Of a DNA stretch of 64,000 nucleotides, positions 1 through 49,634 are shown piece by piece. The stretch comes from Hyphomicrobiales bacterium (GTDB taxonomy: Bacteria; Pseudomonadota; Alphaproteobacteria; Rhizobiales; Aestuariivirgaceae): positions 13,871 through 77,870 of the forward strand of contig JANOVS010000214.1 in the NCBI GenBank assembly GCA_031417515.1, read 5' to 3'. Each line of letters begins with the position of its first letter. Position 1 is the stretch's first letter. The notes under the pieces were generated by a model that saw nothing but the letters and a program-made list of their open reading frames with translations, did not search any database and was not told the origin of the DNA. The position numbers and the translations under genes were made by a program.

Positions 1-297
1 ACTTCCGCTTGGGGCCGTGTATCGGAAACTGTAAGCTGTTCCGGGATCCAAACGTTCCAAAATTTTTGAAACTTTATCGTCAATTTCATCTGCCGGAACA
101 TTCAGCCGGCTAAATGTGACGCGCATCAATTTTTGCAAGTGAACGCCTGCGGACAAATCTGAACTCAAATAACCACACAGGGTTCGATACAAATCATTGC
201 AGGCAAGAAGGCAGAGTTGGGAGTCAAACAATGCCAACCCAACATCCGCGCCAGCAAACAAATCTGCGATGCCTGCATTGTAGTTTTCAGGTATCAT
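1..297 (-). CDS. PAS-like sensory protein, N-terminal part only (the gene runs off the left edge)
   Basis: The minus-strand frame has no stop from 489 to position 1. ATG is at 295-297, with an alternative GTG at 355-357. The translation MIPENYNAGIADLFAGADVGLALFDSQLCLLACNDLYRTLCGY... resembles N-terminal PAS modules of alphaproteobacterial sensor proteins. It is missing from the ORF track because its stop lies outside the window. Confidence 0.4.
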   Translation of the reverse strand, partial: MIPENYNAGIADLFAGADVGLALFDSQLCLLACNDLYRTLCGYLSSDLSAGVHLQKLMRVTFSRLNVPADEIDDKVSKILERLDPGTAYSFRYTAPSGS

Positions 298-528
298 TTC
301 CGGATGACCAAGTTGGTTAGGCCGCTGTATTGACGTTATTCGGTTTTCGTTGTGCACAATTGTCCCCAGTCTTCGACCTTTGCTTATACGCCTAAAGCTA
401 TGAACGAACGATGAAAATGGATAAGAATTCACGCTGCTTTGTGTTTCTCCAAATTTAACGAATTTCTGCCAAGAGTGGGGTTGTGTAAATTATGCAGGGT
501 AAAATAATCGCTCTGCTTGGGGCGAAAT

Positions 529-1479
529 ATGTTGTCAAATGTAGAAAGAACAATTGCTTGCTGGCTGCTGGCTGGAACCCTGCTCGCAGGCTTCGCCATA
601 CCAGGCTTGTCTGAATTGATGCAGCCCTTCACGACGATTAGTCTGCTTCTGCTGATCATCATGTCACTGCTTCCCATGGGCCGAATGGAAAGCGAAGAAG
701 TTTTCAGCCTGGACTCGAAGGTTTGGCAGATTGTCATGTGGCAGCTCCTGGCCTTGCCCGCGATTATTGTTTCTGCGGCCCATCTATTGCGTGTGGATGC
801 CGCAATAACACTGTTGTTGGTGACAACGGCCTCCGCTGGTTCACTGTTTGCATCTCCGACCTTTGCTGAACTGCTTCAGGTCAACAAACAAAAAGCCTTG
901 CAGTGCATGGTGCTGTCCACTTTCCTGATGCCGCTGTCATATTTTCTTTTCTTTACTGTCGTTTTGCACGCAAAAGTCGATATTGATATTTTGCCATTCA
1001 TACAACAATGCATGATCTTTTTGGTTCTGCCATTAGGTCTGTTTCTGGTTTATATGGGCATTGCTGGCAGTATTCCAAAACATGTTGCAGAATCCATTGA
1101 AGGGGTTTCCCGGCGTTCGACCATTCTTGCACTCATGATTTTTGGGATTGGCATCATTGGTCCGGCCCGTGACCTGTTGTGGAGCGAACCCAGCCGTTTT
1201 TTGCTTTATCTCGCAATCGTTACATTGTTGGGTGCAGGCATGGCCTATCTCACAGCCATTGTGATGTTTCGGCAAGGCATCAGTGACTCCTTGACCGCCA
1301 GCATTGTCAGCGGTTTCCGCAATGTTGGATTGGGCTTTATTCTGCTTTCAGGTATCGCAGGCCAAACCATGGCTGAATATGTTGGTGTTTCCCAAATTCC
1401 AATTTTTCTTGCGCCGTTGGTCCTGAGCTTTTTTGTTCGAACCAAACAACCGACAACCAGTCTGCAAATGGCAAATTGA
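529..1479 (+). CDS. polytopic membrane transporter, BASS/AEC-like (bile acid:Na+ symporter-type fold)
   Basis: ORF 517..1479, first ATG at 529. The product is about 317 aa and almost entirely hydrophobic, with about 9-10 predicted TM segments. The family call rests on size and pattern only. Confidence 0.5.
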   Translation: MLSNVERTIACWLLAGTLLAGFAIPGLSELMQPFTTISLLLLIIMSLLPMGRMESEEVFSLDSKVWQIVMWQLLALPAIIVSAAHLLRVDAAITLLLVTTASAGSLFASPTFAELLQVNKQKALQCMVLSTFLMPLSYFLFFTVVLHAKVDIDILPFIQQCMIFLVLPLGLFLVYMGIAGSIPKHVAESIEGVSRRSTILALMIFGIGIIGPARDLLWSEPSRFLLYLAIVTLLGAGMAYLTAIVMFRQGISDSLTASIVSGFRNVGLGFILLSGIAGQTMAEYVGVSQIPIFLAPLVLSFFVRTKQPTTSLQMAN

Positions 1480-1720
1480 GGCCGGTATGCTGCTTGGAGC
1501 GTCGGGAATTTAGTTGCATACGCACTACCGTCATTGCTGCGAAAGTGGGAATGACGTTTTTGCTGCGTGTAATCCCGACTGAATGCCCGAAATGCCAGCC
1601 ACTCTGCAGTCGATCGTGAAACCGTAGTTTCAAAAGTTAGAGATGGGTTAACTCTAATTTCCATTTGTCATTGAATATGGCATTGCTGCCCCTGCGATTT
1701 ACGGTTGTTTAGTTGCGACC

Positions 1721-3022
1721 ATGTTAGTCTGTTTCCATAGTTTATGTGGGGCGACTAAATTGAGCGGCGTGAGTGAGAGTGAATTTTCCAGCGGTGTAAA
1801 CACGGATGATGTAATCCGGTCGTTGCGTTCCGCTTTGACTGACAAGGCCCAGGCTTCATCGCCAGTTGCTCGTTCAGTTCAAACACCAATTTCAATAACT
1901 AAAACTCCAGCAGTTGCTAAAGCAGCAAAGCCTTCCGGTTCGAAACGCTATATGCTGGCATTCTTTGCAGCCACCTTGGCAGGCATGGCTTCTATTTGGT
2001 TTGCAAATCAGGCCTACGCACCTGAAATGTACGCTGATGGTGGAATGGTGGCAGCCGCTGAAGCCCATGCAAAAAATCAAAATTACGCAGTCTTCGATCT
2101 CAATTTGAACATTCGCGCACTTCGCGAAGAGCAATTGAAGCGGATGACCAAAACGCCAGATGTTATTCTGCTGGGTGCCAGTCATTGGCAGGAAGGCCAC
2201 AAGGGGCTGCTTAAGGACTACGATTTTTTCAATGCCCACATTCACCGTGACTACTGGGAAGATCCACTGGGCATGGTGGAACTTCTGGTGCGGAGTAATC
2301 GTCTGCCTAAGAAACTGATCATCAGCATCCGGGACAATCAGTTCAAACCAGTTGAATTGCGTAAAGACTTTCTCTGGGAGCCAGGTATTCCTGCCTATCG
2401 CAGGATGTCTGCGCAATTGGGTCTTGAAACCCAAAGCATCGTGAAAACGCTGCCTTATGACCGCGGACGCGCACTTATTTCTTTGCCCATGCTGTTTGAG
2501 AATTTTACGCGCTGGTACAATGCCTCTGAGCGCCCAGGCCCATCTGAGAATACTCATTTTGAGACATTGGATGCACTGCTGCCGGACGGTTCAATTGTCT
2601 GGTCCAATCAACGCATGCATCTTTTTACAGCTGAGCGTACAAAAATTGAGTCAGATGCATTTGCCAAAAAACGTCGCAATGACCCGCCTGTCTATGAACA
2701 GAAAGGTGTTGATGCCTTCAACACTCTTTTGAACTACCTGAAGAAAGAGGGTGTGAGTGTTTACTTGGTGAAGCCACCCTTCAATCCGACTTATTACGAT
2801 CAGCTTCAAGGCACGCCTTATGCCGAAGGTCTCGCAAAAGTTGATGCCTTGATCAATGGAATTGCTGCTGACCACAAATTGCCGGTCTTTGGAAGTTTCA
2901 ATCCGCACGAACTGGGTTGCACAACTGCCATGTACATCGACGCTGAGCATTCCAACGAAAAATGCTTGCAGAAGATCTTCGATCAATTCGTTGCCATAGA
3001 CTCAGCGAATGGTGATCTGTAA
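1721..3022 (+). CDS. DltD-like membrane-anchored SGNH-type transferase/esterase
   Basis: 433 aa with a single TM at residues about 77-95 (YMLAFFAATLAGMASIWFA). It has a Ser block LLGAS154HW and a C-terminal D407-A-E-H410 (DxxH) block, the layout seen in DltD/AlgJ-type SGNH proteins. Its stop overlaps the MBOAT start (TAATG at 3020-3024). The start codon is uncertain. Confidence 0.6.
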   Translation: MLVCFHSLCGATKLSGVSESEFSSGVNTDDVIRSLRSALTDKAQASSPVARSVQTPISITKTPAVAKAAKPSGSKRYMLAFFAATLAGMASIWFANQAYAPEMYADGGMVAAAEAHAKNQNYAVFDLNLNIRALREEQLKRMTKTPDVILLGASHWQEGHKGLLKDYDFFNAHIHRDYWEDPLGMVELLVRSNRLPKKLIISIRDNQFKPVELRKDFLWEPGIPAYRRMSAQLGLETQSIVKTLPYDRGRALISLPMLFENFTRWYNASERPGPSENTHFETLDALLPDGSIVWSNQRMHLFTAERTKIESDAFAKKRRNDPPVYEQKGVDAFNTLLNYLKKEGVSVYLVKPPFNPTYYDQLQGTPYAEGLAKVDALINGIAADHKLPVFGSFNPHELGCTTAMYIDAEHSNEKCLQKIFDQFVAIDSANGDL

Positions 3023-4533
3023 TGTCTTTCACATCACTCCAGTTCATATTCGTATTTCTGCCGCTGGCCTACCTTGGTTTTGTTTTGGCCCATCGTTTGA
3101 GTGGCGCGCAAATGGCCATCAATGTCTTGGCCGTCGTCTCACTTGTATTCTACGCGATGTTTGGCTCGCAGCTTCTTCTTGTTCTGCTGGTGTCAATGAT
3201 TTTCAATTTTACAGTTGGCAACGTCATTGCGTGTCTGACGGAACACCCAAAAGTGGCTAAAAACCTGCTGTTGGGTGCTGTGGCGGCGAATTTGGGCCTT
3301 CTCGGATATCTGAAGTACACCAACTTCTTCATTGATGTTGCAAACCAGATTGCTGGAACGGGCTACGCGCATTACGATATTGCAGTGCCACTGGGTGTAT
3401 CTTTCTTCACATTCGTGCAGATCGGATATCTTATTGACTCCTACAACGGGCAACTACTGAAACACGATTTCGCGCGTTACATCGTTTTCACTGCGTTTTT
3501 CCCATGCGTAACAGCAGGGCCATTGGTCATGCAGCGTGAGATGATGGGTCAACTTCTGGACTCAAAGTCACCTGCCTTTGATGTGCGCCGTGTGACGATT
3601 GGACTGACCATGTTCGCCATGGGCCTGTTCAAAAAAGTTGTGCTTGCTGACTCAATTGCGCCCTTTGCCAATAGCGTATTTGACGGCGCTCAAAGTGGTT
3701 TCTTGTTTGATGGCACGACCGCATGGATTGGAGCCTTGTGCTACACCCTGCAGCTCTATTTTGACTTCTCTGGATATTCGGACATGGCAATTGGTTTGGC
3801 GACAATATTCGCGATCAAATTGCCGTTGAATTTCGACTCACCATTCAAGTCGACCAACATCTCGGATTTTTGGCGTCGTTGGCACATGACAATGACCCGC
3901 TTTTTCACAGCCTACCTTTATTCAGGCATGGCGATGTATGGCATGCGCAAAAGCGGCGGATTGCGTCTTGGTCGTGTTGGTCGCTTTTTGCTGGTCGCCG
4001 CCTTGCCCTCGCTCCTTACATTTATTGTTGCGGGCGTTTGGCACGGCTCGGGCTGGACCTTCGTGATTTACGGTGTGATGCATGGTCTCGCTGTTGCTGC
4101 ATTCCTGGGTTGGCGCGAGTTCTCCCGTGTAACTTTGCCAACTCCCGTTGCCTGGCTTCTGACCATGGTGACCGTGGTATGTGGTTTGGTGGTGTTCCGC
4201 GCCCCTGATGTTACAACGGCATTGTCCATGCTCGGCCACATGTTTGGCTTGTCCGGTGGATCGGGCGTCGGTCAACTTCTTTCAATCGACAGTGCCAAAG
4301 CCGCTTCGATGATTGTCATCATGGGTGCCATTACGCTTCTGTTGCCGAATACGCAGCAAATCCTGCATCACGAATGGCCAGTGGTTGACACGATGCCAGC
4401 AGAAACCGCGACCGCAGCTGGTTTGGTTGCGTGGCGACCAAGCTTCGGAACAGCCTTTGTCAGCGCCTGCATTTTTACAATTGCAATTACCTCAATCGGA
4501 TCCAGTTCTGGATTCCTCTACTACAAATTTTAA
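3022..4533 (+). CDS. MBOAT family O-acyltransferase (DltB/AlgI-like)
   Basis: 503 aa polytopic protein. It has the signature FWRRWHMTMTRFF and a downstream VWHGSGW histidine motif typical of DltB/AlgI. Confidence 0.9.
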   Translation: MSFTSLQFIFVFLPLAYLGFVLAHRLSGAQMAINVLAVVSLVFYAMFGSQLLLVLLVSMIFNFTVGNVIACLTEHPKVAKNLLLGAVAANLGLLGYLKYTNFFIDVANQIAGTGYAHYDIAVPLGVSFFTFVQIGYLIDSYNGQLLKHDFARYIVFTAFFPCVTAGPLVMQREMMGQLLDSKSPAFDVRRVTIGLTMFAMGLFKKVVLADSIAPFANSVFDGAQSGFLFDGTTAWIGALCYTLQLYFDFSGYSDMAIGLATIFAIKLPLNFDSPFKSTNISDFWRRWHMTMTRFFTAYLYSGMAMYGMRKSGGLRLGRVGRFLLVAALPSLLTFIVAGVWHGSGWTFVIYGVMHGLAVAAFLGWREFSRVTLPTPVAWLLTMVTVVCGLVVFRAPDVTTALSMLGHMFGLSGGSGVGQLLSIDSAKAASMIVIMGAITLLLPNTQQILHHEWPVVDTMPAETATAAGLVAWRPSFGTAFVSACIFTIAITSIGSSSGFLYYKF

Positions 4534-4550
4534 CGGACGGGAAAATACCA

Positions 4551-5762
4551 ATGAATACGCACAACCATCAATTCAACGAGATTGTTTTGGAACTGCCACG
4601 TGCAGTCGATCATGAAGTTGCGGGCGACATTGAAAAAGAGTCAGTGTTTGTTTCGCCCTACATCGATCGTATTTTTGTAAATGCCGACGGGCTTACAGCG
4701 CGCGTCGTGACCCGGCCTGGTGCAGACCTTGTAGAAATCAAGGAAAAAGCCGCCCGCTTTCTTGAAGTGATGGTGAAGCAGGTTTCTGGTTTTGAAATCA
4801 AGGTGTTCATTGACACCAAACGCAAAGACACCGGCCCATATTTCACCGGCGTGAACGATGAACTGGTAAAGCGTGGCTGGATGCATGACTATGGCAAGGG
4901 TCAAGTGGCCTACAGCGGCCCAGTTTTGAAACTGGCGAAGCTGATCAACGACAAGTCGGGCGAACTCTACAAAGCGGCCTTTAATGCGAAGGACTCGCAT
5001 TTCCCCGCGATGATTGACGCCGACACTTTGCACAAGTGCGGATATTTTGACTCGCATCCCAATGCAGTAACCTTCGTTGGCAACGTCGTTGAGGATTTTG
5101 ATGCGATTGAGGAATTTCGTCGTGCCAATTCTTGTTCTGAAGGCGCCCTGTTGCCAAAGCAGGAACACATCCACATCGATGGAATGTGTTTGAACCCGGC
5201 AGCATGTTTCCCGTGCTATCCAACGCTTACCGGCCAGGACTTCAAGGAGGGCCAATGTTACACGTGGCTTGGCCGTGTATTCCGCTATGAATCGCGCAAC
5301 ATCAATGGTCTTGACCGCTTGTATGAGTTCAACGTTCGTGAACTCGTGTTTGTCGGCAGTGAAGAATACGTGCGCAGTTGCCGCGCCAAGGCTTTGCCCA
5401 TCGTGGAAGAGTTGGCTTCATTCATCGACATTGATTGCCAGGTCCAGACTGCAACCGATCCGTTTTTTGCAACTGTTTCCGCCGCAAAGAAATTCTGGCA
5501 GGCGGCACAAGAAGTTAAAAACGAAATAAAAATTCCTGCGCTTGGAAATGACGGCAGCCAAAAAATGTTGGCTTGCGGGTCGATCAATTTGCACGGGAAT
5601 TTCTTCGGCAAGCGCTTTGGCTTTACCTGTGAAAATGGCGAACCTGCGCAAACAGGTTGCGTGGGACTTGGCATTGAACGTTGGGTTCTTGCCGCCTTTA
5701 CGCAGCACGGCTTTGACGAAATGCGCTGGCCTGAAGCCGTTCGAAACAACATTTTCAAATAA
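4551..5762 (+). CDS. amino acid--[carrier protein] ligase, class-II (SerRS-like) aminoacyl-tRNA synthetase homolog lacking a tRNA-binding arm
   Basis: ATG at 4551 lies after the MBOAT stop; the ORF-track start at 4431 overlaps the MBOAT gene. Class II motif 2 is VFRYESRN...YEFNVRE and motif 3 is GCVGLGIERWVLAAF. Cys residues (AACFPCYP, QTGCVG) sit where atypical SerRS-type enzymes bind Zn. At 403 aa there is no N-terminal coiled coil. Confidence 0.8.
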   Translation: MNTHNHQFNEIVLELPRAVDHEVAGDIEKESVFVSPYIDRIFVNADGLTARVVTRPGADLVEIKEKAARFLEVMVKQVSGFEIKVFIDTKRKDTGPYFTGVNDELVKRGWMHDYGKGQVAYSGPVLKLAKLINDKSGELYKAAFNAKDSHFPAMIDADTLHKCGYFDSHPNAVTFVGNVVEDFDAIEEFRRANSCSEGALLPKQEHIHIDGMCLNPAACFPCYPTLTGQDFKEGQCYTWLGRVFRYESRNINGLDRLYEFNVRELVFVGSEEYVRSCRAKALPIVEELASFIDIDCQVQTATDPFFATVSAAKKFWQAAQEVKNEIKIPALGNDGSQKMLACGSINLHGNFFGKRFGFTCENGEPAQTGCVGLGIERWVLAAFTQHGFDEMRWPEAVRNNIFK

Positions 5763-5802
5763 CAACAATAACAACAACAACTAAAAACAAGGAAGCAAGA
5801 AC

Positions 5803-6060
5803 ATGCAACTCTATCAACTCATCGGAAAAGTATTGGGTGTTAACCCGGCAGAATTGAATGAAGATTCAAACGCTCAAAACACCCCAAAATGGGATTCACT
5901 TCGTCACATCGAAGTTGTGTTCGCGATGGAAAACGCTTTTCACGTCCGCTTCACAATGCCCGAGATTTCGGGTTTGCGGAAACTTAGCGACATCCGACAA
6001 CTTTTGTTAACTAAAAATGTACGTCTCAATGAGCAAGATGAAGAGCGAAAGATTGCTTGA
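5803..6060 (+). CDS. small acyl/aminoacyl carrier protein (DltC/ACP-like)
   Basis: 85 aa, with RBS AAGGAAG upstream. The motif TPKWDSLRHIEVVFAMENAF matches the ACP helix II phosphopantetheine Ser motif (DSL). It lies 40 nt downstream of the ligase. Confidence 0.75.
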   Translation: MQLYQLIGKVLGVNPAELNEDSNAQNTPKWDSLRHIEVVFAMENAFHVRFTMPEISGLRKLSDIRQLLLTKNVRLNEQDEERKIA

Positions 6061-6105
6061 TCAAGAGGTTCAGTATCAAACTCTTTCAAAACGGCGGTTA
6101 GTATT

Positions 6106-8181
6106 GTGTTGCCAGACAAAACAGTAAAAGTGTTGATTGTGGACGATGATGAGGACGACTTGTACCTCATCAACGACGCGTTGGGGGAAGTAGAGCGTAC
6201 GCGCTATGCTGTCACCACAGCATCTTCAATTCTGCTGGCCATGGTGGCGTTGTCCAAGGAGAGTTTTGATGTCATTTTCAGCGATTTTCGTCTTGGTGCG
6301 TTGACAGGTATCGACTTTATCAATGGTGTCCGCGCGGCTGGCATTGATACGCCAATTATTTTGTTGACTGGCGTATCCGATCATCTTGTCGACAATGCTG
6401 CGCTGAAAGCGGGTTCATCTGATTTCATTCCAAAAACAGCAATCACTGCAAATGTTTTGGACCGGTCTGTTCGCTACGCATTGGCGCATGCTGATCGACA
6501 ACGTTTGCTGCAAAGTATTCTGAAGAATACAAAGTCTGCGATCACGGTTATTGATGCGGATGGCCAAGTTTCACTCTCGAACGCACAAATGACCAACTTC
6601 GCTCACTTGGCGTTTGGCGAAGTGCCAAATGCGAAGCAACAGTTGATCCAATTGGCATATGCCTCGACTGAAAAAGACATTGTGGTTGGATCAATTGTTT
6701 TGGAACCCCACATCACGAAACTACCAGACAACAGTTCAATTCTGGCACTTCATGATGTGACGGACCGCGTAAACGCCTTGCGCGCTCGGGAACAGGCGGA
6801 GGAGCGTATCCGTGCCATAGCCATGCAAGATGGCCTTACCGGAATTCCAAACCGTCTTGCTTTCAATGAATATCTCGACGATTGCTTGTTGCAGGCCAAC
6901 ACGGATAATTCAAAAGTTGCGGTGCTCTTGTTTGACTTCAACAGGTTCAAGGAGGTCAATGATCTGTTTGGGCATGCTGCAGGCGATCATATTTTGCGAA
7001 ACGCCGCAGCGGTGGTGCAATCCATTCTGAAGGGCGACGAATTTTGCTCACGCCTCGGTGGAGACGAGTTCGTTCTCATTCAATGCAACAGCAATCGTGA
7101 GAAGGCGCTTGAGCTTTCGTCGCGGATTGTTGAAAGCTTGTCAGTTTCATTGAAGTGGGACGATAAAACCATAGAGTCCAGCGTTACCTTGGGGGTTGCA
7201 CTGTTTCCTGACCATGGCGAGGATCGCCAGGAACTTTTGGCCAATGCTGATCTTGCGATGTACCGGGGCAAGTCGGCGCTTGATCGCTCGGTGTGCATAT
7301 TTGATGCGAGCATGGACAAATTCGTTCGTGAACGCCGTGGCATAGTACATGATTTGCGCCATGCCATTGAGGGCAATGAGCTTAGTCTGGATCTGCAGCC
7401 GCAGTTCGCTGCGGTAACCGGAAAACTCCTGGGTTTTGAGGCGCTTTTGCGTTGGTATTGTCCAAAACGGGGGCGCGTGTCGCCAGCCCAATTCATTCCG
7501 ATTGCTGAAGAAACCGGACTCATTATCGAAATTGACAAGTGGGTACTAACCAAGGCCTGTCAGTTGTTGGCAGAACATGACTGGCTGCAACGTCTGGCCG
7601 TCAACCTGTCAGCCCGTGCGATCTGCCAACCATTCATCGTTGAACAAGTTCGTTCCGCTCTGCTTACAAATGGAATTTCGCCAAGTCGGTTGGAGCTTGA
7701 AATAACCGAAACGGCTTTGATTCACGATCTAAATCGGGCACTTCATAATCTTCGGCAGTTAAAGGCGTTTGGTATCTCTTTTGCGCTGGACGACTTTGGA
7801 ACGGGCTATTCATCCCTGTCGCTACTCAGTTCATTTCCCTTTGACCGCATTAAGGTCGATGGTTCATTTGTTCAAATGACAGGAAGTGATGGGCGTTCTG
7901 ATGCCCTGTTTACCGCAGTCATTGGACTGGGCAGGGCACTCCGTGTTCCTGTCTTGGTCGAAGGAGTTGAAACTGAACAGCAAATGGCATTTGCGGAAAC
8001 TGCCGGTTGTGATGAAATTCAGGGATACTACACTGGCCGCCCAATACCTGCCACAATGATTTCAGAACTAAGAACTGATTTGGGAAATTCCATCTCAATG
8101 TCGAAAATGAAATCATGGCAAGAGCGCAAGGCTCAGCATGGGAAAGCGCCTGATCGACAACCGATGCGCGAAGTCTCTTGA
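6106..8181 (+). CDS. response-regulator receiver - sensory linker - GGDEF - EAL protein (c-di-GMP turnover)
   Basis: GTG start. REC motif is VLIVDDDEDDLYL ... FSDFRL. GGDEF is intact (RLGGDEFVLI). EAL motifs are FEALLRW, ELEITE and DDFGTGYSSL. Confidence 0.9.
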   Translation: MLPDKTVKVLIVDDDEDDLYLINDALGEVERTRYAVTTASSILLAMVALSKESFDVIFSDFRLGALTGIDFINGVRAAGIDTPIILLTGVSDHLVDNAALKAGSSDFIPKTAITANVLDRSVRYALAHADRQRLLQSILKNTKSAITVIDADGQVSLSNAQMTNFAHLAFGEVPNAKQQLIQLAYASTEKDIVVGSIVLEPHITKLPDNSSILALHDVTDRVNALRAREQAEERIRAIAMQDGLTGIPNRLAFNEYLDDCLLQANTDNSKVAVLLFDFNRFKEVNDLFGHAAGDHILRNAAAVVQSILKGDEFCSRLGGDEFVLIQCNSNREKALELSSRIVESLSVSLKWDDKTIESSVTLGVALFPDHGEDRQELLANADLAMYRGKSALDRSVCIFDASMDKFVRERRGIVHDLRHAIEGNELSLDLQPQFAAVTGKLLGFEALLRWYCPKRGRVSPAQFIPIAEETGLIIEIDKWVLTKACQLLAEHDWLQRLAVNLSARAICQPFIVEQVRSALLTNGISPSRLELEITETALIHDLNRALHNLRQLKAFGISFALDDFGTGYSSLSLLSSFPFDRIKVDGSFVQMTGSDGRSDALFTAVIGLGRALRVPVLVEGVETEQQMAFAETAGCDEIQGYYTGRPIPATMISELRTDLGNSISMSKMKSWQERKAQHGKAPDRQPMREVS

Positions 8182-8296
8182 ACTCAAATTGAAATTGCGC
8201 CCGCCCTTTGATCCTTTTGGAAAGCGGCATTGTCTTGCCATTGCTGCCGGAGCACAGTAACGTATTTCTCTTAACTGTATGTTTGGGGAGTCAACA

Positions 8297-9610
8297 ATGC
8301 TCACTCAAGATGTTCACGGTAACTCACTTTCAAACGCAAGCAATGATACGACGAGCGCCTTCATGGATGCCGTCCAGCAGCTCTCGATCTATGCAGGTGA
8401 CCCGCTGGGTGCCGCTGAAAAGATCATTGCTGACGAACCGCAATGTGTGATGGCCCATGCATTGAAGGCTTGGCTCTATCTGCTCGGCACTGATGCGAAA
8501 GCAGCCCGTGAAGCAAACGCGATTATTGCCCGGACCGATGGACTCAAAACGACAACCCGTGAAAAAGGCCACATCTCCGCCATCAAGAAACTTGCCAATG
8601 GCGAATTCCTCGCTGCATCGCGCATCATTGAAGATATGAATGTAGAGCATCCACGCGATCTTCTGGCTCTGATCGTGGGACATCAACTCGACTTTTTCAC
8701 AGGCAATTCGCGCATGTTGCGTGACCGCATCTCACGCGCCATGCCGCACTGGTCCGCCAGCATGCCTGGATATCATTCTGTGCTGGGCATGCATGCCTTT
8801 GGCCTTGAGGAGATGGGCAACTATGCGCTCGCCGAAGCCAAGGGTCGTGAAGCGTTATCCCATGAACGGCGCGATGGCTGGGCGAAACATGCTGTGGCTC
8901 ACGTTTTGGAAATGCAGGGCCGACAGCATGAAGGCATTGCATTCATGCAGGACGATGTGGAGGGGTGGACGAAAGACAGTTTCTTTGCTGTCCACAATTG
9001 GTGGCATTTGGCGCTTTACCATCTTGAGCTCGGACAGTTCGACGAAGTTCTCAAACTTGCTGACGGGCCGATTACAACAACCGTACAGGACCAGATGATC
9101 GATCTTGTTGATGCGTCAGCCTTGCTGTGGCGACTTCATTTACGCGGCATTGATGTGGGTGACCGTTGGACGAAACTGGTGAAGCGCTATGAGAACCTGT
9201 GGGTTCCCGGTTATTATGCTTTCAACGATCTGCATGCTGTGATGGCGTTCCTCGGTGCGGGCCGCACCGATCTGATCGAAGCAACGCTTGAGGCGCAAGC
9301 GAAGGTCGAAGCTGATAACGTCATGTTTTCCGGCGACGTCGGCCTGCCGTTGATCAAGGCGTTCATCGCTTTCCACAACGGAAAATATGCGGACGCGATG
9401 AAACTGATGCGGCCGGTGCGTGGTATCGCTGCGCGCTTTGGTGGCAGCCACGCGCAGCGCGACGTCATTGATCTCACAATGCTTGAGGCCGCGATCCGCG
9501 CTGGCAATATGGAACTCGCCCAAGCGCTTACAGCCGAACGCGCGCTCGCCAAACACGACAGCCCATTGGTAGCACTTTTCACCAGCCGCCTCCAACCGTC
9601 TCACCACTAA
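8297..9610 (+). CDS. TPR protein of the TTC38-like family
   Basis: ORF 8279..9610. The ATG at 8297 is preceded by GGGGAG. The product is helical-repeat rich and about 437 aa, with N-terminal pattern ...AMDAVQQLSIYAGDPLGAAEKIIADEPQCVMAHALKAWLYLLG as in TTC38-type proteins. Confidence 0.65.
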   Translation: MLTQDVHGNSLSNASNDTTSAFMDAVQQLSIYAGDPLGAAEKIIADEPQCVMAHALKAWLYLLGTDAKAAREANAIIARTDGLKTTTREKGHISAIKKLANGEFLAASRIIEDMNVEHPRDLLALIVGHQLDFFTGNSRMLRDRISRAMPHWSASMPGYHSVLGMHAFGLEEMGNYALAEAKGREALSHERRDGWAKHAVAHVLEMQGRQHEGIAFMQDDVEGWTKDSFFAVHNWWHLALYHLELGQFDEVLKLADGPITTTVQDQMIDLVDASALLWRLHLRGIDVGDRWTKLVKRYENLWVPGYYAFNDLHAVMAFLGAGRTDLIEATLEAQAKVEADNVMFSGDVGLPLIKAFIAFHNGKYADAMKLMRPVRGIAARFGGSHAQRDVIDLTMLEAAIRAGNMELAQALTAERALAKHDSPLVALFTSRLQPSHH

Positions 9611-9629: not shown

Positions 9630-9968
9630 TTATTTGTTTCTTTTCGTATCTTTGCAGTAGATGTCGTGCAACAACGTCAGCAGCTGCTGCACTTCCTTGC
9701 TGGCTAACGAATAGTAGATTGTTTGGCCATCACGCCGTGTTGACACCAATTTCAAATTCCGCATTTTCGCCAAATGTTGCGAAATGGCACCTTGGGTGAT
9801 TCCGCTGTTGGCAACCAATTCATGCACGGGTTTTTCACCCTCCACCAATGAACACAGAATGAGCAGGCGAACCGGGTTTGCCATTGTACCAAGCAGACTT
9901 GCAACCTCTGTAGCTTTTGCAGCCATGCTATCCATAGTCATGGGTCTATTGGTGAGTGCGTGTTGCAT
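9630..9968 (-). CDS. bigR: ArsR/SmtB-family redox-switch repressor, BigR-like
   Basis: 112 aa winged helix (NPVRLLILCSLVEGEKPVHELV...ISQHLAKMRNLKLVSTRRDGQTIYYSL). It has the two BigR-type Cys, one in LILC and one in the C-terminal DIYC. It is divergent from a YeeE/YedE-blh operon. Confidence 0.8.
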   Translation of the reverse strand: MQHALTNRPMTMDSMAAKATEVASLLGTMANPVRLLILCSLVEGEKPVHELVANSGITQGAISQHLAKMRNLKLVSTRRDGQTIYYSLASKEVQQLLTLLHDIYCKDTKRNK

Positions 9969-9989
9969 GACACAGTTTCTCTTGACACA

Positions 9990-10011
9990 TTAGAATATTC
10001 GAATATGTTAA
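9990..10011. promoter_or_regulatory. candidate BigR operator overlapping a sigma70-like promoter
   Basis: Perfect 12-bp palindrome ATATTCGAATAT at 9995-10006, extended imperfectly to TTAGAATATTCGAATATGTTAA. TTGACA at 9982-9987 and TATGTT at 10004-10009 are 16 nt apart and point toward the yeeE-like gene. Confidence 0.45.
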
Positions 10012-10062
10012 TTTTCAATCGAAATCAAGTCCCCAGCGAAAATAGTCGAATAAGGAACACGC

Positions 10063-10488
10063 ATGCCTACAGAATTCACACCACTTGCCTCATCTATCGG
10101 CGGTGCCATGATTGGGGCATCAGCGGTATTGCTGATGGCCACGCATGGTCGTATCGCTGGCATCAGCGGCATTGCCGTGCGCATGTTCCCGCCCTACCTC
10201 GACAAAGACGCTGCGGGGCGGTTGGTGTTCATGCTGGGGTTGATTGCGGCGCCATTGCTCTATGCAACACTGACGGGGGCCTGGGCCCCAATGACAATCG
10301 CAACAAGTTCGGGTCTGCTCGTTGCTGCGGGATTGCTTGTTGGTTTCGGTTCAGTCTGGGGCAATGGCTGCACATCTGGTCATGGCATCTGCGGGCTTTC
10401 ACGCTTGTCCGTCCGCTCATTGGTTGCGGTAGCCACTTTCATGGCCACTGCCATCATTACTGTTTTTATCACCCGTCACATGATCTGA
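10063..10488 (+). CDS. YeeE/YedE family sulfur-compound transport protein (half-size)
   Basis: 141 aa with 4 TM segments and the motif GNGCTSGHGICGLSR typical of YeeE/YedE (DUF395). Confidence 0.8.
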   Translation: MPTEFTPLASSIGGAMIGASAVLLMATHGRIAGISGIAVRMFPPYLDKDAAGRLVFMLGLIAAPLLYATLTGAWAPMTIATSSGLLVAAGLLVGFGSVWGNGCTSGHGICGLSRLSVRSLVAVATFMATAIITVFITRHMI

Positions 10489-10497
10489 GGTTACAAC

Positions 10498-10953
10498 ATG
10501 AGTTTGCTCGTTCAATTTTTCATCGGTTTGTTGTTTGGTTCAGGCCTCGTTGTTGCTGGCATGTCTGATCCGGCCAAAGTGCAGAACTTCCTTGATCTCG
10601 CAGCGATAACAAGCGGCGGCTGGGATCCAAGTTTAGCCTTCGTCATGGGGGCAGGAACGCTTGTGACGTATTTGGGCTACGCACTGGTTTTGAAGCGGAA
10701 ACAGCCGATGTTTGACAGCCAATTCCATTTGCCGAAAAAAACCGCCATCGACGCTCCCATTGTTGTCGGTCCTGCGATATTTGGCATTGGCTGGGGTCTT
10801 GGCGGATTCTGTCCTGGTCCTGCATTCACAGCCCTCGGGACTGGTTCTGTCCAAGCGATCTTGTTCGTTGTCGCCATGCTTGCGGGCATGGTGGCTGCTC
10901 GACTTTTTGCACTCAGGCAAATTGCAGCATCAACTCCCACATCCAAGGCATGA
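10498..10953 (+). CDS. YeeE/YedE family protein (second half-size subunit)
   Basis: 151 aa membrane protein (GIGWGLGGFCPGPA), 9 nt after the previous gene. Confidence 0.8.
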   Translation: MSLLVQFFIGLLFGSGLVVAGMSDPAKVQNFLDLAAITSGGWDPSLAFVMGAGTLVTYLGYALVLKRKQPMFDSQFHLPKKTAIDAPIVVGPAIFGIGWGLGGFCPGPAFTALGTGSVQAILFVVAMLAGMVAARLFALRQIAASTPTSKA

Positions 10954-10975
10954 CAGAGTTCCAAGGAGTTTGACC

Positions 10976-11869
10976 ATGACAACTCTTCCTTTCAAACCCG
11001 ATAGTACATTGAAACCAGAAGTGACGGCGTTCTTCGACGAACCTACAAACACCGTCACCTATGTGGTGAAAGATCCAAAATCCAATTCCTGCGCCATCGT
11101 CGACAGTGTGTTAGACATCGACTACGCGGCCGGGCGCATTTCATATGGATCAGCGGATCAAGTGATCGACTTTGTGAACAAGAACGCTCTCACCGCTGAG
11201 TGGCACATTGAAACCCATGTGCATGCCGATCATTTATCGGCGGCGCCCTACCTGCAAAAAAAGCTGGGTGGCATGATTGGCATTGGTCGCAACATCACAG
11301 TCGTGCAGGAAACCTTCGGCAAGATTTTCAATGAAGGCACCGAATTCCAGCGTGACGGCAGCCAGTTTGATCAGTTGTTTGATGATGGCGACACTTATCA
11401 GATTGGTTCAATGAGGGCGCAAACCATTCACACACCTGGGCATACACCAGCTTGCATGACCCATGTTATTGGTGATGCTGCTTTTGTTGGGGACACATTG
11501 TTCATGCCGGACGGCGGTTCAGCCCGGGCTGACTTTCCCGGCGGCGATGCACGGACACTTTTTCGTTCCATCAAGCGTGTTCTGAGCTTGCCCAATGAAA
11601 CCCGCCTGTTCATGTGCCATGACTACGGCCCCAATGGTCGCAACATCAAATGGGAAACCACGGTTGCAGAACAACGCGAACATAACATTCACGCCAGGGA
11701 TGGTGTGACAGAGGATCAGTTTGTTGCGATGCGTGAAGCGCGCGACAAAACTCTCGACATGCCAAAGCTGATTATTCCCTCTTTGCAAGTCAACATGAAA
11801 GCGGGCGAGTTGCCGAAGGCAGATGAGGGTGGAAAACGCTTTCTGAAAGTGCCGTTGAACGTGCTTTGA
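10976..11869 (+). CDS. blh: MBL-fold persulfide dioxygenase-like hydrolase (Blh of the BigR operon)
   Basis: ATG at 10976 follows RBS AAGGAG; the ORF-track start at 10712 overlaps the yedE-like gene. The metallo-beta-lactamase motif is ETHVHADHLSAAPY. The N-terminus MTTLPFKPDS...FFDEPTNTVTYVV is as in Blh/ETHE1-like enzymes. Confidence 0.85.
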   Translation: MTTLPFKPDSTLKPEVTAFFDEPTNTVTYVVKDPKSNSCAIVDSVLDIDYAAGRISYGSADQVIDFVNKNALTAEWHIETHVHADHLSAAPYLQKKLGGMIGIGRNITVVQETFGKIFNEGTEFQRDGSQFDQLFDDGDTYQIGSMRAQTIHTPGHTPACMTHVIGDAAFVGDTLFMPDGGSARADFPGGDARTLFRSIKRVLSLPNETRLFMCHDYGPNGRNIKWETTVAEQREHNIHARDGVTEDQFVAMREARDKTLDMPKLIIPSLQVNMKAGELPKADEGGKRFLKVPLNVL

Positions 11870-13611
11870 TGATTGCCATGAAACGTTATTTCCCAATTCT
11901 CGGCTGGGGCCGCAACTATACGCGCGGCAGTTTGGCGAACGACCTTGTCGCCGCTGCAATAGTCACAATCATGCTGGTGCCCCAGTCTCTGGCCTACGCC
12001 TTGTTGGCGGGGCTCCCGGCTGAGGTCGGGCTTTATGCGTCCATGTTGCCACTGGTTGCCTATGCCATTTTCGGCACCAGCCGCACGCTGGCTGTGGGAC
12101 CTGTGGCCGTTGTGTCGTTGATGACAGCTGCAGCTCTCGGTAAACTGGGCCTCTCTGGAGCCGCCGAATATGCTGCTGCGGCTGTAACACTTGCGGCACT
12201 GTCAGGCATCATGCTTCTGGCACTTGGTGTTTTTCGCTTGGGCTTTTTGGCCAACTTTCTATCGCATCCTGTCATCGCCGGTTTTATCACGGCGTCCGGA
12301 CTTTTGATCGCGGCGGGGCAGCTCAAACATGTTCTTGGCATTAAGGCAGGTGGCGAAAACCTGATTGAAATCTTCGAGGCACTTCTGCCCAATCTCTCGC
12401 AAACCAATGTCATCACTCTGGTCATTGGTGGGGCGGCAACGGCATTCCTGTTTTGGGTGCGTAGAGGATTAAAACCCTTGTTGACGCAGCTCGGATTAGG
12501 CCCGCGTCCGGCTGATCTGGTGGCCAAGACAGGTCCCATTTTGGCCTTGGCTGCCACAGCTTTTGCGGCGTGGATGTTTGACCTGGGAACGCAGGGTGTA
12601 AAACTCGTTGGTACTGTACCGCAGGGCTTGCCAGATTTTGCGCTGCCAGAATTTTCGACACCACTTGTGCAAAGCCTGGCGCTGCCAGCCCTGTTGATTT
12701 CGGTCATAGGATTTGTTGAATCGGTTTCCGTAGGTCAAACACTTGCCGCAAAGCGCCGCCAACGCATTGAGCCGGATCAGGAACTGATTGGTCTTGGCGC
12801 ATCAAACCTGGCGGCTTCAGTGTCAGGTGGCTTTCCGGTGACAGGTGGTTTTGCCCGTTCAGTTGTAAATTTTGATGCAGGTGCCGAAACGCCCGCCGCA
12901 GGTGCTTTCACCGCCATTGGCCTTGCCGCAGCCACTTTGTTTCTCACGCCCCTGCTGGCTTACCTGCCGCAAGCAACTTTGGCGGCAACGATCATCGTTG
13001 CAGTTTTGTCACTTGTCGATCTTTCCATTTTGAAGCGCACGTGGAATTACGCCAAGTCGGATTTCGCCGCCGTTATGGCAACCATTCTGCTTACATTGGG
13101 CGTGGGCGTCGAGGCAGGCATCGTTGCAGGCGTTGTACTTTCCATCCTGCTGCACCTCTACAAAACCTCAAGGCCGCATATTGCCATTCTGGGACGCGTT
13201 CCAGGCACCGAGCATTTTCGCAACATCAAACGACACAGCGTTGAAACCGATGCAACACTACTTTCCATGCGCGTCGATGAAAGCCTGTATTTCGCCAATG
13301 CGCGTTTTCTGGAAGATCAAATTTATGCGCGTATTGCAGAGCATCCTTCGACCAAAAATCTCGTTCTGGTTTGCCCCGCCATCAACGACATTGACCTGAG
13401 TGCGCTCGAAAGCCTGGAAAGCATCAATGCCCGACTGAAAGACGCTGGCGTCACATTCCACCTGTCTGAAGTGAAAGGTCCGGTGATGGACAAGCTGGAA
13501 CGCTCGGGATTCTTGCCACACCTGACAGGAAAGGTGTTTCTAAGCCACCATCAGGCCGTAAAAGGGCTACATGAACGAGCAGAACCACAAGGGTCTCTCA
13601 CGCCAGCATGA
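11869..13611 (+). CDS. SulP family anion permease with C-terminal STAS domain
   Basis: The start overlaps the blh stop (TGATG). The N-terminus has the SulP signature (GWGRNYTRGSLANDLVAAAIVTIMLVPQSLAYALLAGLP). The C-terminal STAS has ...LVLVCPAINDIDLSALESL. Confidence 0.9.
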   Translation: MIAMKRYFPILGWGRNYTRGSLANDLVAAAIVTIMLVPQSLAYALLAGLPAEVGLYASMLPLVAYAIFGTSRTLAVGPVAVVSLMTAAALGKLGLSGAAEYAAAAVTLAALSGIMLLALGVFRLGFLANFLSHPVIAGFITASGLLIAAGQLKHVLGIKAGGENLIEIFEALLPNLSQTNVITLVIGGAATAFLFWVRRGLKPLLTQLGLGPRPADLVAKTGPILALAATAFAAWMFDLGTQGVKLVGTVPQGLPDFALPEFSTPLVQSLALPALLISVIGFVESVSVGQTLAAKRRQRIEPDQELIGLGASNLAASVSGGFPVTGGFARSVVNFDAGAETPAAGAFTAIGLAAATLFLTPLLAYLPQATLAATIIVAVLSLVDLSILKRTWNYAKSDFAAVMATILLTLGVGVEAGIVAGVVLSILLHLYKTSRPHIAILGRVPGTEHFRNIKRHSVETDATLLSMRVDESLYFANARFLEDQIYARIAEHPSTKNLVLVCPAINDIDLSALESLESINARLKDAGVTFHLSEVKGPVMDKLERSGFLPHLTGKVFLSHHQAVKGLHERAEPQGSLTPA

Positions 13612-32965: not shown

Positions 32966-34528
32966 TCACCACACACCGTTGCCCGCACGCATGCGCTCTC
33001 TCGGCAAGATGATGTTGTAGTGCGCGCGGATATTTGCATCGACGTCTTCGCCGATGTGGCGGGGATAATGTTCCGTCAAGATCTTGCGCACCCGGTCGCG
33101 GGCGGGGGCACGGGCATCTTTCGCACCGGCCTGTTGCCACTCATTGGTGCTGCGCCGGCAGGCAATCTCGGGATATACATAATCGGTTTTCATGCGAGCA
33201 AGTGTTTGCGCGTGTCCCAGAAAATGGCCAGGTCCCATGACCGTGTCGCGGATGACGTCGAAGCTCAGCGTATCTTCGCTCACTTCAATGCCTTTCACTG
33301 TGCGCAGGATGGCACCCAGCAGATCATTGTCAATCACGTAACCTTCCAGCGTGGTGCCCATCAATGAAGCCTGCATGCCCGCACATTCATGGATCATCGT
33401 GGCGCCCGCATGGGCCGCGAGAGAAATGGTGTAGCCTTTTTCACCGCCACTCTGCGCGTCAGGCAGTTTGCTGTCGGTCATGCCGGCGGGAACAGAATTG
33501 GGAAGATCATAGAAATTTGCCATTTGCGCACAGGCCGCCGAAAGCAAAGCCTGTTCGCCAGAACCGCCTGACATGGCCCCCGTGCGCAAGTCAGACACAA
33601 AGGGCCAGGCAGCAAAGATGCCGCGGCAGTTGGGGTCAATGATATTGCACAACACAAGTCCTGCCAGAACCTCCGCACAAGCCTGCGCCACGGCGCCCGC
33701 CAACGCGGCAGGTGCTGTCGCTCCGGCTTGCCCGGCTGATACAAGCAAGATGGGCATGCCAGCGAGAACGGCGGCTTCCAGTGCGTCACAGCTTTCCGTG
33801 GCAAAGCGCATCGGCGGCACAACATGGCAGCACACGGCGGTGCAGAAGGGTCGCTCACGATGCTTACCCTCGCCGCCCGCTGCCGCATCCAACATGGGCT
33901 GCACAGCGCGGGCGCTATTGCCATCGGTATAGCTTACGGCGATGGATTTTGTCGTGCCTGCAAGGCAGGCATAGGTCGTGTTCATATCGAGGTCGTGAAT
34001 CGAGTTTGCATCGCGCGCCACGATGGAGCGGTGATACCAATGAATATTGTCGAGCTTGTCCACCAGCCGCGCAATGTCATAGAGATCGGCAACAGTGCTT
34101 TCGCGGTAAAGTCCCGTCTCAAAGTCCATGATGGTGGGTGCCGCACCGCCCGTGCCAGTGTGGACGCGCTTGCCGCCGATCTCGATATCATGGCGGGGAT
34201 CGAGTCCATGCAGCGTAAAGGAGCGCCGCGAGCGGGCAATCACATCTTCAACAAGGCCGCGCGGAAAATGCAGGCGGCCCTCATTGTCCATCCGGCATCC
34301 GGCTTCCACCGCGCGCCGCTCAAGGCTGGGCGTGATTTGCGACAGGCCAAGCTCTTCAAGCAACTGCAGCACCAGGTGATGAACGCGCAGAACTTCGCTG
34401 TCAGTCAAAGGCTTGTATCGGCCACCCACCATGCCGGGGGAGATGGGAGATATGGCTTTTAAAGGGTCAGCATCGGCACGCGGACGGCGACCGGTGCGGC
34501 GGGGGCTTTCGGTTGTGGCAACATTCAT
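32966..34528 (-). CDS. MttB-superfamily (trimethylamine methyltransferase-like) protein, non-pyrrolysine type
   Basis: 520 aa uninterrupted, with no in-frame TAG. The N-terminus ...GGRYKPLTDSEVLRVHHLVLQLLEELG and overall length are typical of MttB/MtgB homologs. Confidence 0.8.
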   Translation of the reverse strand: MNVATTESPRRTGRRPRADADPLKAISPISPGMVGGRYKPLTDSEVLRVHHLVLQLLEELGLSQITPSLERRAVEAGCRMDNEGRLHFPRGLVEDVIARSRRSFTLHGLDPRHDIEIGGKRVHTGTGGAAPTIMDFETGLYRESTVADLYDIARLVDKLDNIHWYHRSIVARDANSIHDLDMNTTYACLAGTTKSIAVSYTDGNSARAVQPMLDAAAGGEGKHRERPFCTAVCCHVVPPMRFATESCDALEAAVLAGMPILLVSAGQAGATAPAALAGAVAQACAEVLAGLVLCNIIDPNCRGIFAAWPFVSDLRTGAMSGGSGEQALLSAACAQMANFYDLPNSVPAGMTDSKLPDAQSGGEKGYTISLAAHAGATMIHECAGMQASLMGTTLEGYVIDNDLLGAILRTVKGIEVSEDTLSFDVIRDTVMGPGHFLGHAQTLARMKTDYVYPEIACRRSTNEWQQAGAKDARAPARDRVRKILTEHYPRHIGEDVDANIRAHYNIILPRERMRAGNGVW

Positions 34529-38253: not shown

Positions 38254-38254
38254 T

Positions 38255-38569
38255 TTAGCTAATGTCGATCAGGATTTTGCCATTCTCAATCTTCACGGGG
38301 TAGACGCGCAAGTTGATGCAGGCGGGCGCACCCTTGGCAGCTCCCGTGGTGTAGTCGAAACGTCCATTGTGCTTGGGGCACTCAATGGTGTGGTCCATCA
38401 CCAGGCCATCGGCCAAATGAATTTTCTCGTGGGTACAAAGGCCATCGGTGGCGTAGTATTTGTCATCCGGTGAGCGATAGATGGCGTAGGTTTTTCCGGC
38501 GTGGTCAAAGCGCGCCACATCTTCATTGTCCACGTCATCAGCGTTGAGGGTTTCAATCCATTGGGTCAT
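38255..38569 (-). CDS. Rieske [2Fe-2S] ferredoxin (MocE-like)
   Basis: 104 aa from the ATG at 38569. The Rieske motif is CTHEKIHL...CPKHNGRF. Confidence 0.85.
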   Translation of the reverse strand: MTQWIETLNADDVDNEDVARFDHAGKTYAIYRSPDDKYYATDGLCTHEKIHLADGLVMDHTIECPKHNGRFDYTTGAAKGAPACINLRVYPVKIENGKILIDIS

Positions 38570-38579
38570 GTTAAATCCT

Positions 38580-39695: not shown

Positions 39696-39743
39696 CCTTG
39701 TTTGATGACAGGCTTTTAGAATGCTTGTGTCTTTGGGGCAATG

Positions 39744-39775
39744 TTGATATGATGGTTTTTATCATCTCATATCAA
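39744..39775. promoter_or_regulatory. inverted repeat TTGATATGA-N14-TCATATCAA, candidate operator
   Basis: 9-bp perfect arms sit in the AT-rich divergent region between the oxygenase operon and the LacI-family gene. Confidence 0.3.
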
Positions 39776-39809
39776 ATCTTATCATTTTTGGCAGACCAAT
39801 CAAAGACAC

Positions 39810-40832: not shown

Positions 40833-40840
40833 GGCAGCAT

Positions 40841-41557: not shown

Positions 41558-41632
41558 TATCAAATTCCAAAAAGCAAAAGGCCCGTCAGCGCGACGGGCC
41601 TTTGATGTCATGTCGCCAGGGGCGTCCTACCA

Positions 41633-49630: not shown

Positions 49631-49634
49631 CGAA

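Follow-up and report, generated by a model that had tools for sequence, protein, structure and literature searches.

Organization of the locus

A 64,000-nucleotide stretch of genomic DNA from a Gram-negative Hyphomicrobiales bacterium of soil or fresh water, a member of the Aestuariivirgaceae (assembly GCA_031417515.1, contig JANOVS010000214.1, positions 13,871 to 77,870; here called the window) carries four codirectional genes near its 5' end. They encode a DltD-like SGNH acyltransferase, an MBOAT acyltransferase, a homolog of class II aminoacyl-tRNA synthetases (aaRSs), and a small carrier protein (Table 1). A reading of the sequence alone, referred to below as the original prediction, had taken these genes for an envelope aminoacylation operon of the Dlt type in which the synthetase-like enzyme, a putative amino acid:carrier-protein ligase, replaces DltA. 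Here we report a computational analysis of this proposal.

The four genes are packed as tightly as had been described. The open reading frames (ORFs) of the DltD-like and MBOAT genes overlap in a TAATG stop/start (positions 3020 to 3024), 17 nt (4534 to 4550) holding a GGACGGGA-like ribosome-binding site separate the MBOAT and ligase genes, and 40 nt (5763 to 5802) with the ribosome-binding site AAGGAAG separate the ligase and carrier-protein genes. The motifs originally quoted for all four proteins are present and conserved among orthologs. What the four-gene description lacked is a fifth conserved gene, which encodes a BASS-fold transporter-like protein and lies upstream of the DltD-like gene. 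Scans for promoters and terminators returned fewer sites than in shuffled controls. In public annotation, the ligase is labeled "seryl-tRNA synthetase" (JGI) and the SGNH protein "hypothetical." The window stems from an Aestuariivirga-like metagenome-assembled genome; GCA_043736835.1 has contigs that encode the same proteins, and Aestuariivirga or Hyphomicrobiales are the labels of the nearest genomic loci.

The low G+C content of the block that had been noted is real and modest (48.9% versus 52.7% for the window; 3rd percentile of same-size windows), but the accessory origin suggested to explain it finds no support, since synteny of the locus, flanks included, extends through a whole alphaproteobacterial lineage. 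The low-G+C stretch covers approximately positions 1 to 8000 and is thus wider than the four genes. Recent horizontal acquisition was rejected as its cause because the low-G+C run includes flanks with lineage-wide synteny.

TABLE 1 Features of the predicted aminoacylation locus and positions in the window
Feature	Position	Strand	Length	Basis or remark
BASS/ASBT-fold transporter-like gene, 10 transmembrane helices	529-1479	+	316 aa	From ATG at 529; mechanical ORF begins at TTG 517
DltD-like SGNH acyltransferase gene	1721-3022	+	433 aa	ORF list, profiles, model, residue conservation
MBOAT acyltransferase gene	3022-4533	+	503 aa	DltB-like core, predicted catalytic His341, C-terminal extension
FxYxxF codons at MBOAT C terminus	4513-4530	+		F498-L-Y500-Y-K-F503; Tyr500 is the predicted acyl-tyrosine intermediate
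Amino acid:carrier-protein ligase gene (predicted)	4551-5762	+	403 aa	Class II aaRS homolog, methanogen-SerRS/Bll0957 type; from ATG at 4551
Ligase N-terminal domain	4551-4835	+	Residues 1-95	Beta-alpha-beta-beta-alpha-beta
Carrier-protein gene	5803-6060	+	85 aa	Predicted phosphopantetheine Ser32, codon 5896-5898
REC-GGDEF-EAL response regulator gene	6106-8181	+		45 nt 3' of carrier-protein gene

A class II synthetase homolog and its carrier protein

Bradyrhizobium (Bll0957 and Bll6282) and Agrobacterium (Atu2573) have amino acid:[carrier protein] ligases that were reportedly described by Mocibob et al. in 2010 and 2013, and Bll0957 is said to be a glycine:carrier-protein ligase. The ligase of the locus matches PF00587 at 5.3e-7, slightly over the gathering score, and two curated families below their cutoffs: NF005479 (amino acid--[ACP] ligase; 7.6e-46, 156.5 bits, cutoff of 357 bits) and NF002120 (methanogen-type seryl-tRNA synthetase [SerRS]; 4.6e-42, 144 bits, cutoff of 611 bits). 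Judged by these scores, it appears about equally distant from Bll0957-type ligases and methanogen-type SerRS. A family profile gives 178 bits for Bll0957 versus 159 bits for type-2 SerRS. Homologs of the ligase make up a large, varied family of 1,242 representative clusters at an E value of ≤1e-10.

A structure model of the ligase (predicted local distance difference test score [pLDDT] of 88) superposes on Bll0957 with a target-normalized TM-score of 0.84 to 0.88 (0.88 for 3mf1) and a root mean square deviation of ∼3 Å; the top structural match is the SerRS of M. kandleri. The zinc ligands of Bll0957 and methanogen-type SerRS, which lie in the PAAC, FRxE, and TGC motifs of Bll0957, align with C219, E247, and C370 of the ligase. 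C219, E247, and the motif 2 and 3 arginines (R245 and R377) are present in all 145 homologs, and C370 is present in 144 of them. The profiles, zinc site, and structural agreement thus keep the 403-aa protein among the homologs of SerRS-type class II aaRSs, where the original prediction had placed it.

The ligase had also been described as lacking a tRNA-binding arm, which is roughly right. It is 403 aa long versus ∼520 aa for methanogen-type SerRS, and its match to the latter begins at SerRS residue 148 to 168 or later. It does, however, keep an N-terminal domain of ∼95 aa that is missing from Bll0957-type ligases. This domain may be a remnant of the SerRS N-terminal region or an ACT-like module. 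Residues S344 and N346, mapped by alignment, are common to Gly- and Ser-specific relatives, and we therefore make no call on amino acid specificity.

The 85-aa protein scores at the gathering threshold of PF00550 (3.7e-4, 21.1 bits, cutoff of 20.8) and is matched by acyl carrier protein (ACP) family models; its best matches are generic ACPs, not DltC specifically. Among ACPs in the PDB, it matches 2lml at 2.3e-5. W30 and S32 occur in 100% and D31 in 97% of 155 orthologs. Its proposed place among the carrier proteins is borne out by these matches and by the conserved W-D-S sequence.

A DltB-like MBOAT that ends in an acyl-shuttle motif

The MBOAT matches PF03062 (6.7e-20), and its sole NCBIfam match is TIGR04091 (DltB; 1.2e-49), where 169.6 bits fall under the 375-bit cutoff. 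Among solved structures, it matches only DltB (6bug and 8jem, ∼3e-27) over residues 124 to 365, with the FWHG of DltB aligned to its VWHG. H288 and H341 are found in 125 of 125 orthologs. On its sequence, the protein is a DltB homolog rather than a DltB equivalog. Approximately 140 residues follow the DltB-homologous core and end in FLYYKF, and 124 of 126 orthologs have FxYxxF as their last six residues. No other ORF within the first 9 kb of the window ends in this motif, and no separate DltX-like small ORF ending in FxYxxF was found in positions 1 to 9000.

In the Dlt pathway, FxYxxF is found on the microprotein DltX, and D-Ala travels on its tyrosine from DltB to DltD (Anderson et al. 2025, PMC12148441). 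In PatA, AlgI, and other Gram-negative MBOATs, the motif is fused at the C terminus, on two extra helices; PatA auto-acetylates the FxYxxF tyrosine from acetyl-CoA, and for DltX and PatA, the motif has been shown to act as an acyl-tyrosine shuttle that links an MBOAT to an SGNH protein (PMC12148441). The original description of a DltB/AlgI-type MBOAT therefore needs refinement: the family and the DltB relationship are right, but this is not a plain DltB, as it carries a PatA/AlgI-type extension with FxYxxF and has no DltX beside it. No DltX should be needed, because the acyl-shuttle motif sits at the MBOAT's own C terminus. Because MBOAT-SGNH pathways other than Dlt use acyl-CoA and have no carrier protein (PMC12148441), the locus appears to combine a Pat/Alg-type MBOAT architecture with a Dlt-type carrier donor and an aaRS-type loader. 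By this sequence-based prediction, the system is a Dlt/Pat hybrid without DltX.

A DltD-like SGNH protein and a BASS-like partner

A profile match to DltD (PF04914) or to SGNH families had been expected for the 433-aa protein. Its sequence scores stayed below threshold (17.3 bits for PF04914, cutoff of 22.7; 17.1 bits for DUF1574, under the cutoff; 13.8 bits for TIGR04092, cutoff of 150), and it has no sequence match in the PDB, but its model suggests an SGNH/DltD fold. The best PDB match of the AlphaFold model (pLDDT of 76) in Foldseek is DltD (6pfx; E = 1.4e-4), with a TM-score of 0.35 to 0.40, followed by SGNH esterases with a target-normalized TM-score of ∼0.6. The residues that had been singled out form a conserved triad (S154 in 107/107, D407 in 107/107, and H410 in 106/107 orthologs). 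The single transmembrane segment described for the protein was also recovered: it is predicted to have an N-terminal cytoplasmic region of ∼70 aa, one transmembrane helix that starts at residue ∼73 to 76 and runs to ∼99, and a periplasmic SGNH domain.

The BASS-like protein has no Pfam match, even at E ≤ 10. A profile of 19 orthologs matches bile-acid/sodium symporter structures (7cyk, 7.9e-6) over positions 6 to 270, nearly its full length. Its gene lies upstream in most loci, and in three metagenome-assembled genomes, the BASS-like and DltD-like proteins are fused in single ORFs of 815 to 917 aa (L067:5992-8439, L069:5961-8432, and L072:5682-8435). The BASS-like transporter gene is thus a conserved fifth member of the locus. 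The topology of the BASS-SGNH fusion further suggests that the SGNH domain is periplasmic.

Conservation of the gene neighborhood

In total, 166 loci from a genome scan, a metagenome scan, and contig look-ups were searched with hidden Markov models built from the window proteins. The genome scan used 10 ligase sequences, and its best 80 loci are all at least 65% identical in the ligase; loci below 65% identity were sampled through the metagenome scan and contig look-ups. Adjacency was counted only at loci with at least 3.3 kb of sequence upstream of the ligase gene. Genes for the DltD-like protein and the MBOAT lie next to the ligase gene in 11/11 loci at ligase identities of ≥90%, 26/26 at 80 to 90%, 36/38 at 70 to 80%, 20/20 at 60 to 70%, 4/4 at 50 to 60%, 5/8 at 40 to 50%, and 0/4 below 40%. 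At identities of at least 50%, the DltD-like/MBOAT/ligase/carrier arrangement is therefore found in 97 of 99 loci, and it persists in some loci at 45 to 50%. Two of the latter loci (L089 and L090) have the altered order DltD-like, carrier protein, MBOAT, ligase. A carrier-protein gene adjoins the ligase gene in essentially every locus. Synteny in other genomes, on which the original prediction depended, is thus widespread.

Both exceptions come from loci with 77% ligase identity (L036:3510-10047 and L100:4991-11526). They keep the ligase, carrier-protein, and REC-GGDEF-EAL genes beside the same histidine kinase and response regulator, and the BASS-like, DltD-like, and MBOAT genes are missing at these two loci and probably at a third (L037).

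Few other genes are conserved around the core. Relatives of the window's lineage carry an ACPS gene ∼7 kb upstream of the gene for the DltD-like protein, at a place beyond the window, and in a distant version of the operon, an Sfp-type 4'-phosphopantetheinyl transferase gene (PF01648, 5e-15; L092:7256-8074) lies directly 3' of the carrier-protein gene. The conserved neighbors of the core are limited to genes for a TRAP transporter and for a PAS histidine kinase and its response regulator, which lie further upstream, and the REC-GGDEF-EAL gene, which is kept in the Aestuariivirga clade only. The last may be cotranscribed with the operon and may be a regulator. Its position hints at a link between the pathway and cyclic di-GMP. 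Pfam searches of the flanks of distant core loci and of ∼20 other ORFs of the window found no conserved genes for glycan, lipopolysaccharide (LPS), peptidoglycan, or glucan synthesis.

Ligase-carrier pairs in other lineages

Ligase homologs with 39 to 42% identity are encoded on Myxococcota-like contigs (L083 to L086, L168, and L169) directly 3' of a PP-binding gene. These distant pairs sit among Bac_transf, GT4/GT2, Wzy_C, Wzx (Polysacc_synt), Poly_export, and Wzz genes. In three of the contigs (L084 to L086), a Hexapep acyltransferase gene comes next after the ligase gene, and in another, a 638-aa ligase-Hexapep fusion (P0505; L169:7001-8917) is encoded between PP-binding and Polysacc_synt (Wzx-like) genes. 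The exoN/O/P spore-coat genes of Myxococcus xanthus may, we presume, be a Hexapep variant of the same kind. Two further homologs have other contexts: L167 is secondary-metabolite-like, and L165, a short Bll0957-like protein, is encoded beside DUF1839 and hydrolase genes.

This repeated association with polysaccharide genes is the best clue so far to a role of the aminoacyl-carrier protein in glycan decoration. The ligase-carrier module looks like a general aminoacyl donor for this purpose, with interchangeable transferases that are either cytoplasmic (Hexapep) or transmembrane (MBOAT-SGNH).

A proposed pathway and its alternatives

We put the probability at roughly two in three that the locus encodes a carrier-dependent pathway by which an aminoacyl group leaves the cytoplasm and reaches an acceptor beyond the inner membrane. 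All of its steps are inferred from the protein families and folds, the conservation of catalytic residues, the gene linkage, and the gene fusions. A phosphopantetheinyl transferase would produce the holo-carrier protein at Ser32. The ligase would bind an alpha-amino acid, probably a small one (Gly, Ala, or Ser), at the Cys219/Glu247/Cys370 zinc site, form the aminoacyl-adenylate, and thioesterify the phosphopantetheine arm of the carrier, as reported for Bll0957 and Atu2573. The MBOAT would dock the aminoacyl-S-carrier protein on the cytoplasmic face, where His341 would move the aminoacyl group to the enzyme's own Tyr500 on the periplasmic side. Ser154 of the DltD-like protein would then take the group and hand it on to an acceptor in the periplasm or outer envelope, at one of the acceptor's hydroxyls; this acceptor is most likely a glycan. 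The BASS-like transporter would work with the SGNH protein, for example, in substrate supply or as a scaffold.

Several observations weigh against this pathway. For MBOATs of the PatA/AlgI type, which carry the motif as a fusion, the known donor is acetyl-CoA and not a carrier protein (PMC12148441). The deletion variants L036, L100, and possibly L037 keep the ligase and carrier protein without the BASS-like, SGNH, and MBOAT genes, so that the pair may also serve another acceptor enzyme. Sequence support for the DltD-like protein is weak, its assignment coming from a model with a pLDDT of 76 and a TM-score to DltD of 0.35 to 0.40. The ligase scores under the cutoff of the curated amino acid:[ACP] ligase family (156 versus 357 bits) and has an extra N-terminal domain, and aminoacylation activity is a prediction for every member of the clade. 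Lastly, the genes conserved beside the core include none for a polysaccharide, LPS, peptidoglycan, or glucan, so that the acceptor is predicted without a clue from the neighborhood.

The last point bears on the alternative that survives best, although we consider it improbable: the same pathway logic with a membrane lipid or a protein as the acceptor, such as the head group of a phospholipid or glycolipid in the inner membrane's outer leaflet, with an outcome like that of MprF or AlmEFG. Besides the missing glycan-synthesis genes, a lipid or protein acceptor would fit the membrane-embedded BASS-like partner, which some genomes encode as a fusion with the SGNH protein, and lipoteichoic acid, the acceptor of DltD, is itself lipid anchored (PMC12148441). 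However, the characterized bacterial MBOAT-SGNH pairs all modify polymers, namely, teichoic acid, peptidoglycan, alginate, and cellulose (PMC12148441), and the distant ligase-carrier pairs sit in polysaccharide clusters.

Slightly less probable still, and unlikely in our judgment, although it is the chief competitor of the pathway, is the juxtaposition of two independent systems, an acetyl-CoA-dependent O-acetyltransferase like PatA/PatB or AlgI/AlgJ and a ligase-carrier pair for some other cytoplasmic pathway. This would account for the PatA/AlgI-type extension and FxYxxF motif, since such MBOATs use acyl-CoA (PMC12148441), and for the occurrence of ligase and carrier without MBOAT or SGNH proteins in L036, L100, and many distant lineages. 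Yet the MBOAT core matches, among curated families and solved structures, only the carrier-dependent DltB. The linkage, with its overlap and short gaps, holds in 97 of 99 loci, extends down to ∼45% ligase identity, and survives the reordering in L089 and L090, while the conserved block encodes no other consumer of an aminoacyl-carrier protein. The depth and strength of this linkage, together with the lack of another consumer, make independent systems unlikely, with some probability left to them above all by the deletion variants L036 and L100.

Very improbable is a third view, prompted by the public annotation, by the retained N-terminal domain with M. kandleri SerRS as the top structural match, and by the secondary-metabolite-like context of L167, in which the 403-aa enzyme is an atypical tRNA-charging SerRS or the locus a small nonribosomal natural-product pathway: little is left of the N-terminal domain with which methanogen-type SerRS binds tRNA, the score for that family is 144 versus 611 bits, the family profile favors Bll0957 over SerRS, a carrier-protein gene stands beside the ligase gene in essentially every locus, and the conserved block encodes membrane proteins as partners and no condensation, thioesterase, or tailoring enzymes.

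Carrier-dependent aminoacylation of an acceptor outside the inner membrane thus remains our preferred interpretation. A broader proposal, for and against which we see the odds as even, is that aaRS-derived amino acid:carrier-protein ligases supply the aminoacyl groups with which envelopes and polysaccharides are decorated. The ligase of Aestuariivirga and related Hyphomicrobiales would replace DltA in a five-gene Gram-negative Dlt/Pat hybrid by which glycine or an L-amino acid is esterified onto a polymer of the periplasm or surface, and in other phyla, the same ligase-carrier module would feed Hexapep acyltransferases in Wzx/Wzy clusters.

Other genes in the window

The remainder of the window holds several further gene groups. 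Downstream of the locus (9630 to 13611) are genes for an ArsR-type helix-turn-helix regulator, two small sulfur-transport-like membrane proteins (Sulf_transp and DUF6691), a metallo-beta-lactamase-fold protein, and a SulP/STAS transporter; this cluster may handle sulfur compounds and is kept downstream in the closest contigs. An MTTB-family methyltransferase homolog is encoded at 32966 to 34528 (minus strand). Nearby (37021 to 42661) are genes for two membrane proteins of the FA_desaturase family, a flavoprotein that resembles ferredoxin reductases, and a LacI-type regulator. They are followed by a gene (42964 to 44205, plus strand) for a 413-aa protein with N-acetylmuramidase (PF11860) and Peptidase_M15 domains, a predicted cell wall hydrolase with two activities. 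On the minus strand, at 47082 to 49708, a RuBisCO large-subunit homolog (447 aa) is encoded beside an SBD_N/NBD_C protein of the four-carbon acid-sugar-kinase type; the pair resembles a RuBisCO-like protein metabolic pair and not a CO2-fixing RuBisCO.

Significance and comparison with known systems

The original prediction held that the physiological role of amino acid:carrier-protein ligases was unassigned, and a 2022 review likewise calls their biological role unknown (PMC9437257). The original prediction was also aware of no earlier description of the hybrid system. In the literature open to full-text search, we came across no account that couples an aaRS-like ligase to MBOAT and SGNH proteins, although an earlier mention may exist. 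If our interpretation is correct, the locus would provide the first physiological role for the aaRS-derived ligases, orphans since 2010, and would extend carrier-dependent MBOAT-SGNH acylation beyond the D-alanylation of Gram-positive teichoic acids. The product, an amino acid in ester linkage and probably a source of added positive charge, would be a new decoration of the Gram-negative envelope and could affect resistance to cationic antimicrobials, the biofilm matrix, or recognition by phages and hosts. With four small proteins, the locus makes the long-open question of ligase function directly testable.

The closest parallel is the DltABCD/DltX system for D-alanylation of teichoic acids in Firmicutes. 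Both appear to have a carrier loaded in the cytoplasm, a DltB-like MBOAT with a catalytic His, a DltD-like SGNH protein with a single transmembrane helix and a Ser-Asp-His triad, an acyl-tyrosine FxYxxF shuttle, and a tight operon. They differ in the loader, which is the ANL-family enzyme DltA in Dlt and a zinc-dependent class II aaRS homolog here; no AMP-binding enzyme is encoded at the locus, where the aaRS homolog is the sole adenylating enzyme. They also differ in the shuttle motif, found on the DltX microprotein in Dlt and on the MBOAT's C terminus here, in the additional BASS-like transporter, and in the diderm alphaproteobacterial host. D-Ala is an unlikely cargo for the locus. To our knowledge, Alphaproteobacteria have no teichoic acids. 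The dra locus of Bordetella belongs in the same comparison.

The O-acetylation systems PatA/PatB (peptidoglycan), AlgI/AlgJ/AlgF/AlgX (alginate), and WssH/WssI (cellulose) resemble the locus in the extra C-terminal MBOAT helices that end in FxYxxF, in the separate membrane-anchored periplasmic SGNH partner, and in the Gram-negative envelope in which they work. They use acetyl-CoA without a carrier (PMC12148441), whereas here, judged on gene content, the operon encodes a carrier and a ligase in 97 of 99 loci.

The ligase itself shares with Bll0957, Bll6282, and Atu2573 a class II core derived from methanogen-type SerRS (28% identity), the Cys-Glu-Cys zinc site, and the adjacent carrier-protein gene. 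It is ∼60 to 85 aa longer than these enzymes of ∼320 aa, has the N-terminal alpha/beta domain, and falls under the NF005479 cutoff. The genomic context differs as well, as the short-type homolog L165 lies beside DUF1839 and hydrolase genes and not beside MBOAT and SGNH genes.

Aminoacylation of a Gram-negative envelope through an aminoacyl-S-carrier protein has a precedent in AlmEFG, which adds glycine to the lipid A of Vibrio cholerae. There, the loader AlmE belongs to the ANL enzymes and resembles DltA, and AlmG acts as a lipid A acyltransferase at the cytoplasmic face; unlike the locus described here, AlmEFG has no MBOAT or SGNH protein. The carrier-ligase-Hexapep modules of Wzx/Wzy clusters, finally, have the same ligase family (39 to 42% identity) and an adjacent carrier but a soluble left-handed beta-helix acyltransferase, which presumably acts on a sugar precursor in the cytoplasm; they have no MBOAT or SGNH protein. 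A swap of both the adenylating enzyme (ANL or class II aaRS) and the transferase (MBOAT-SGNH or Hexapep) among these systems would represent mix-and-match pathway evolution.

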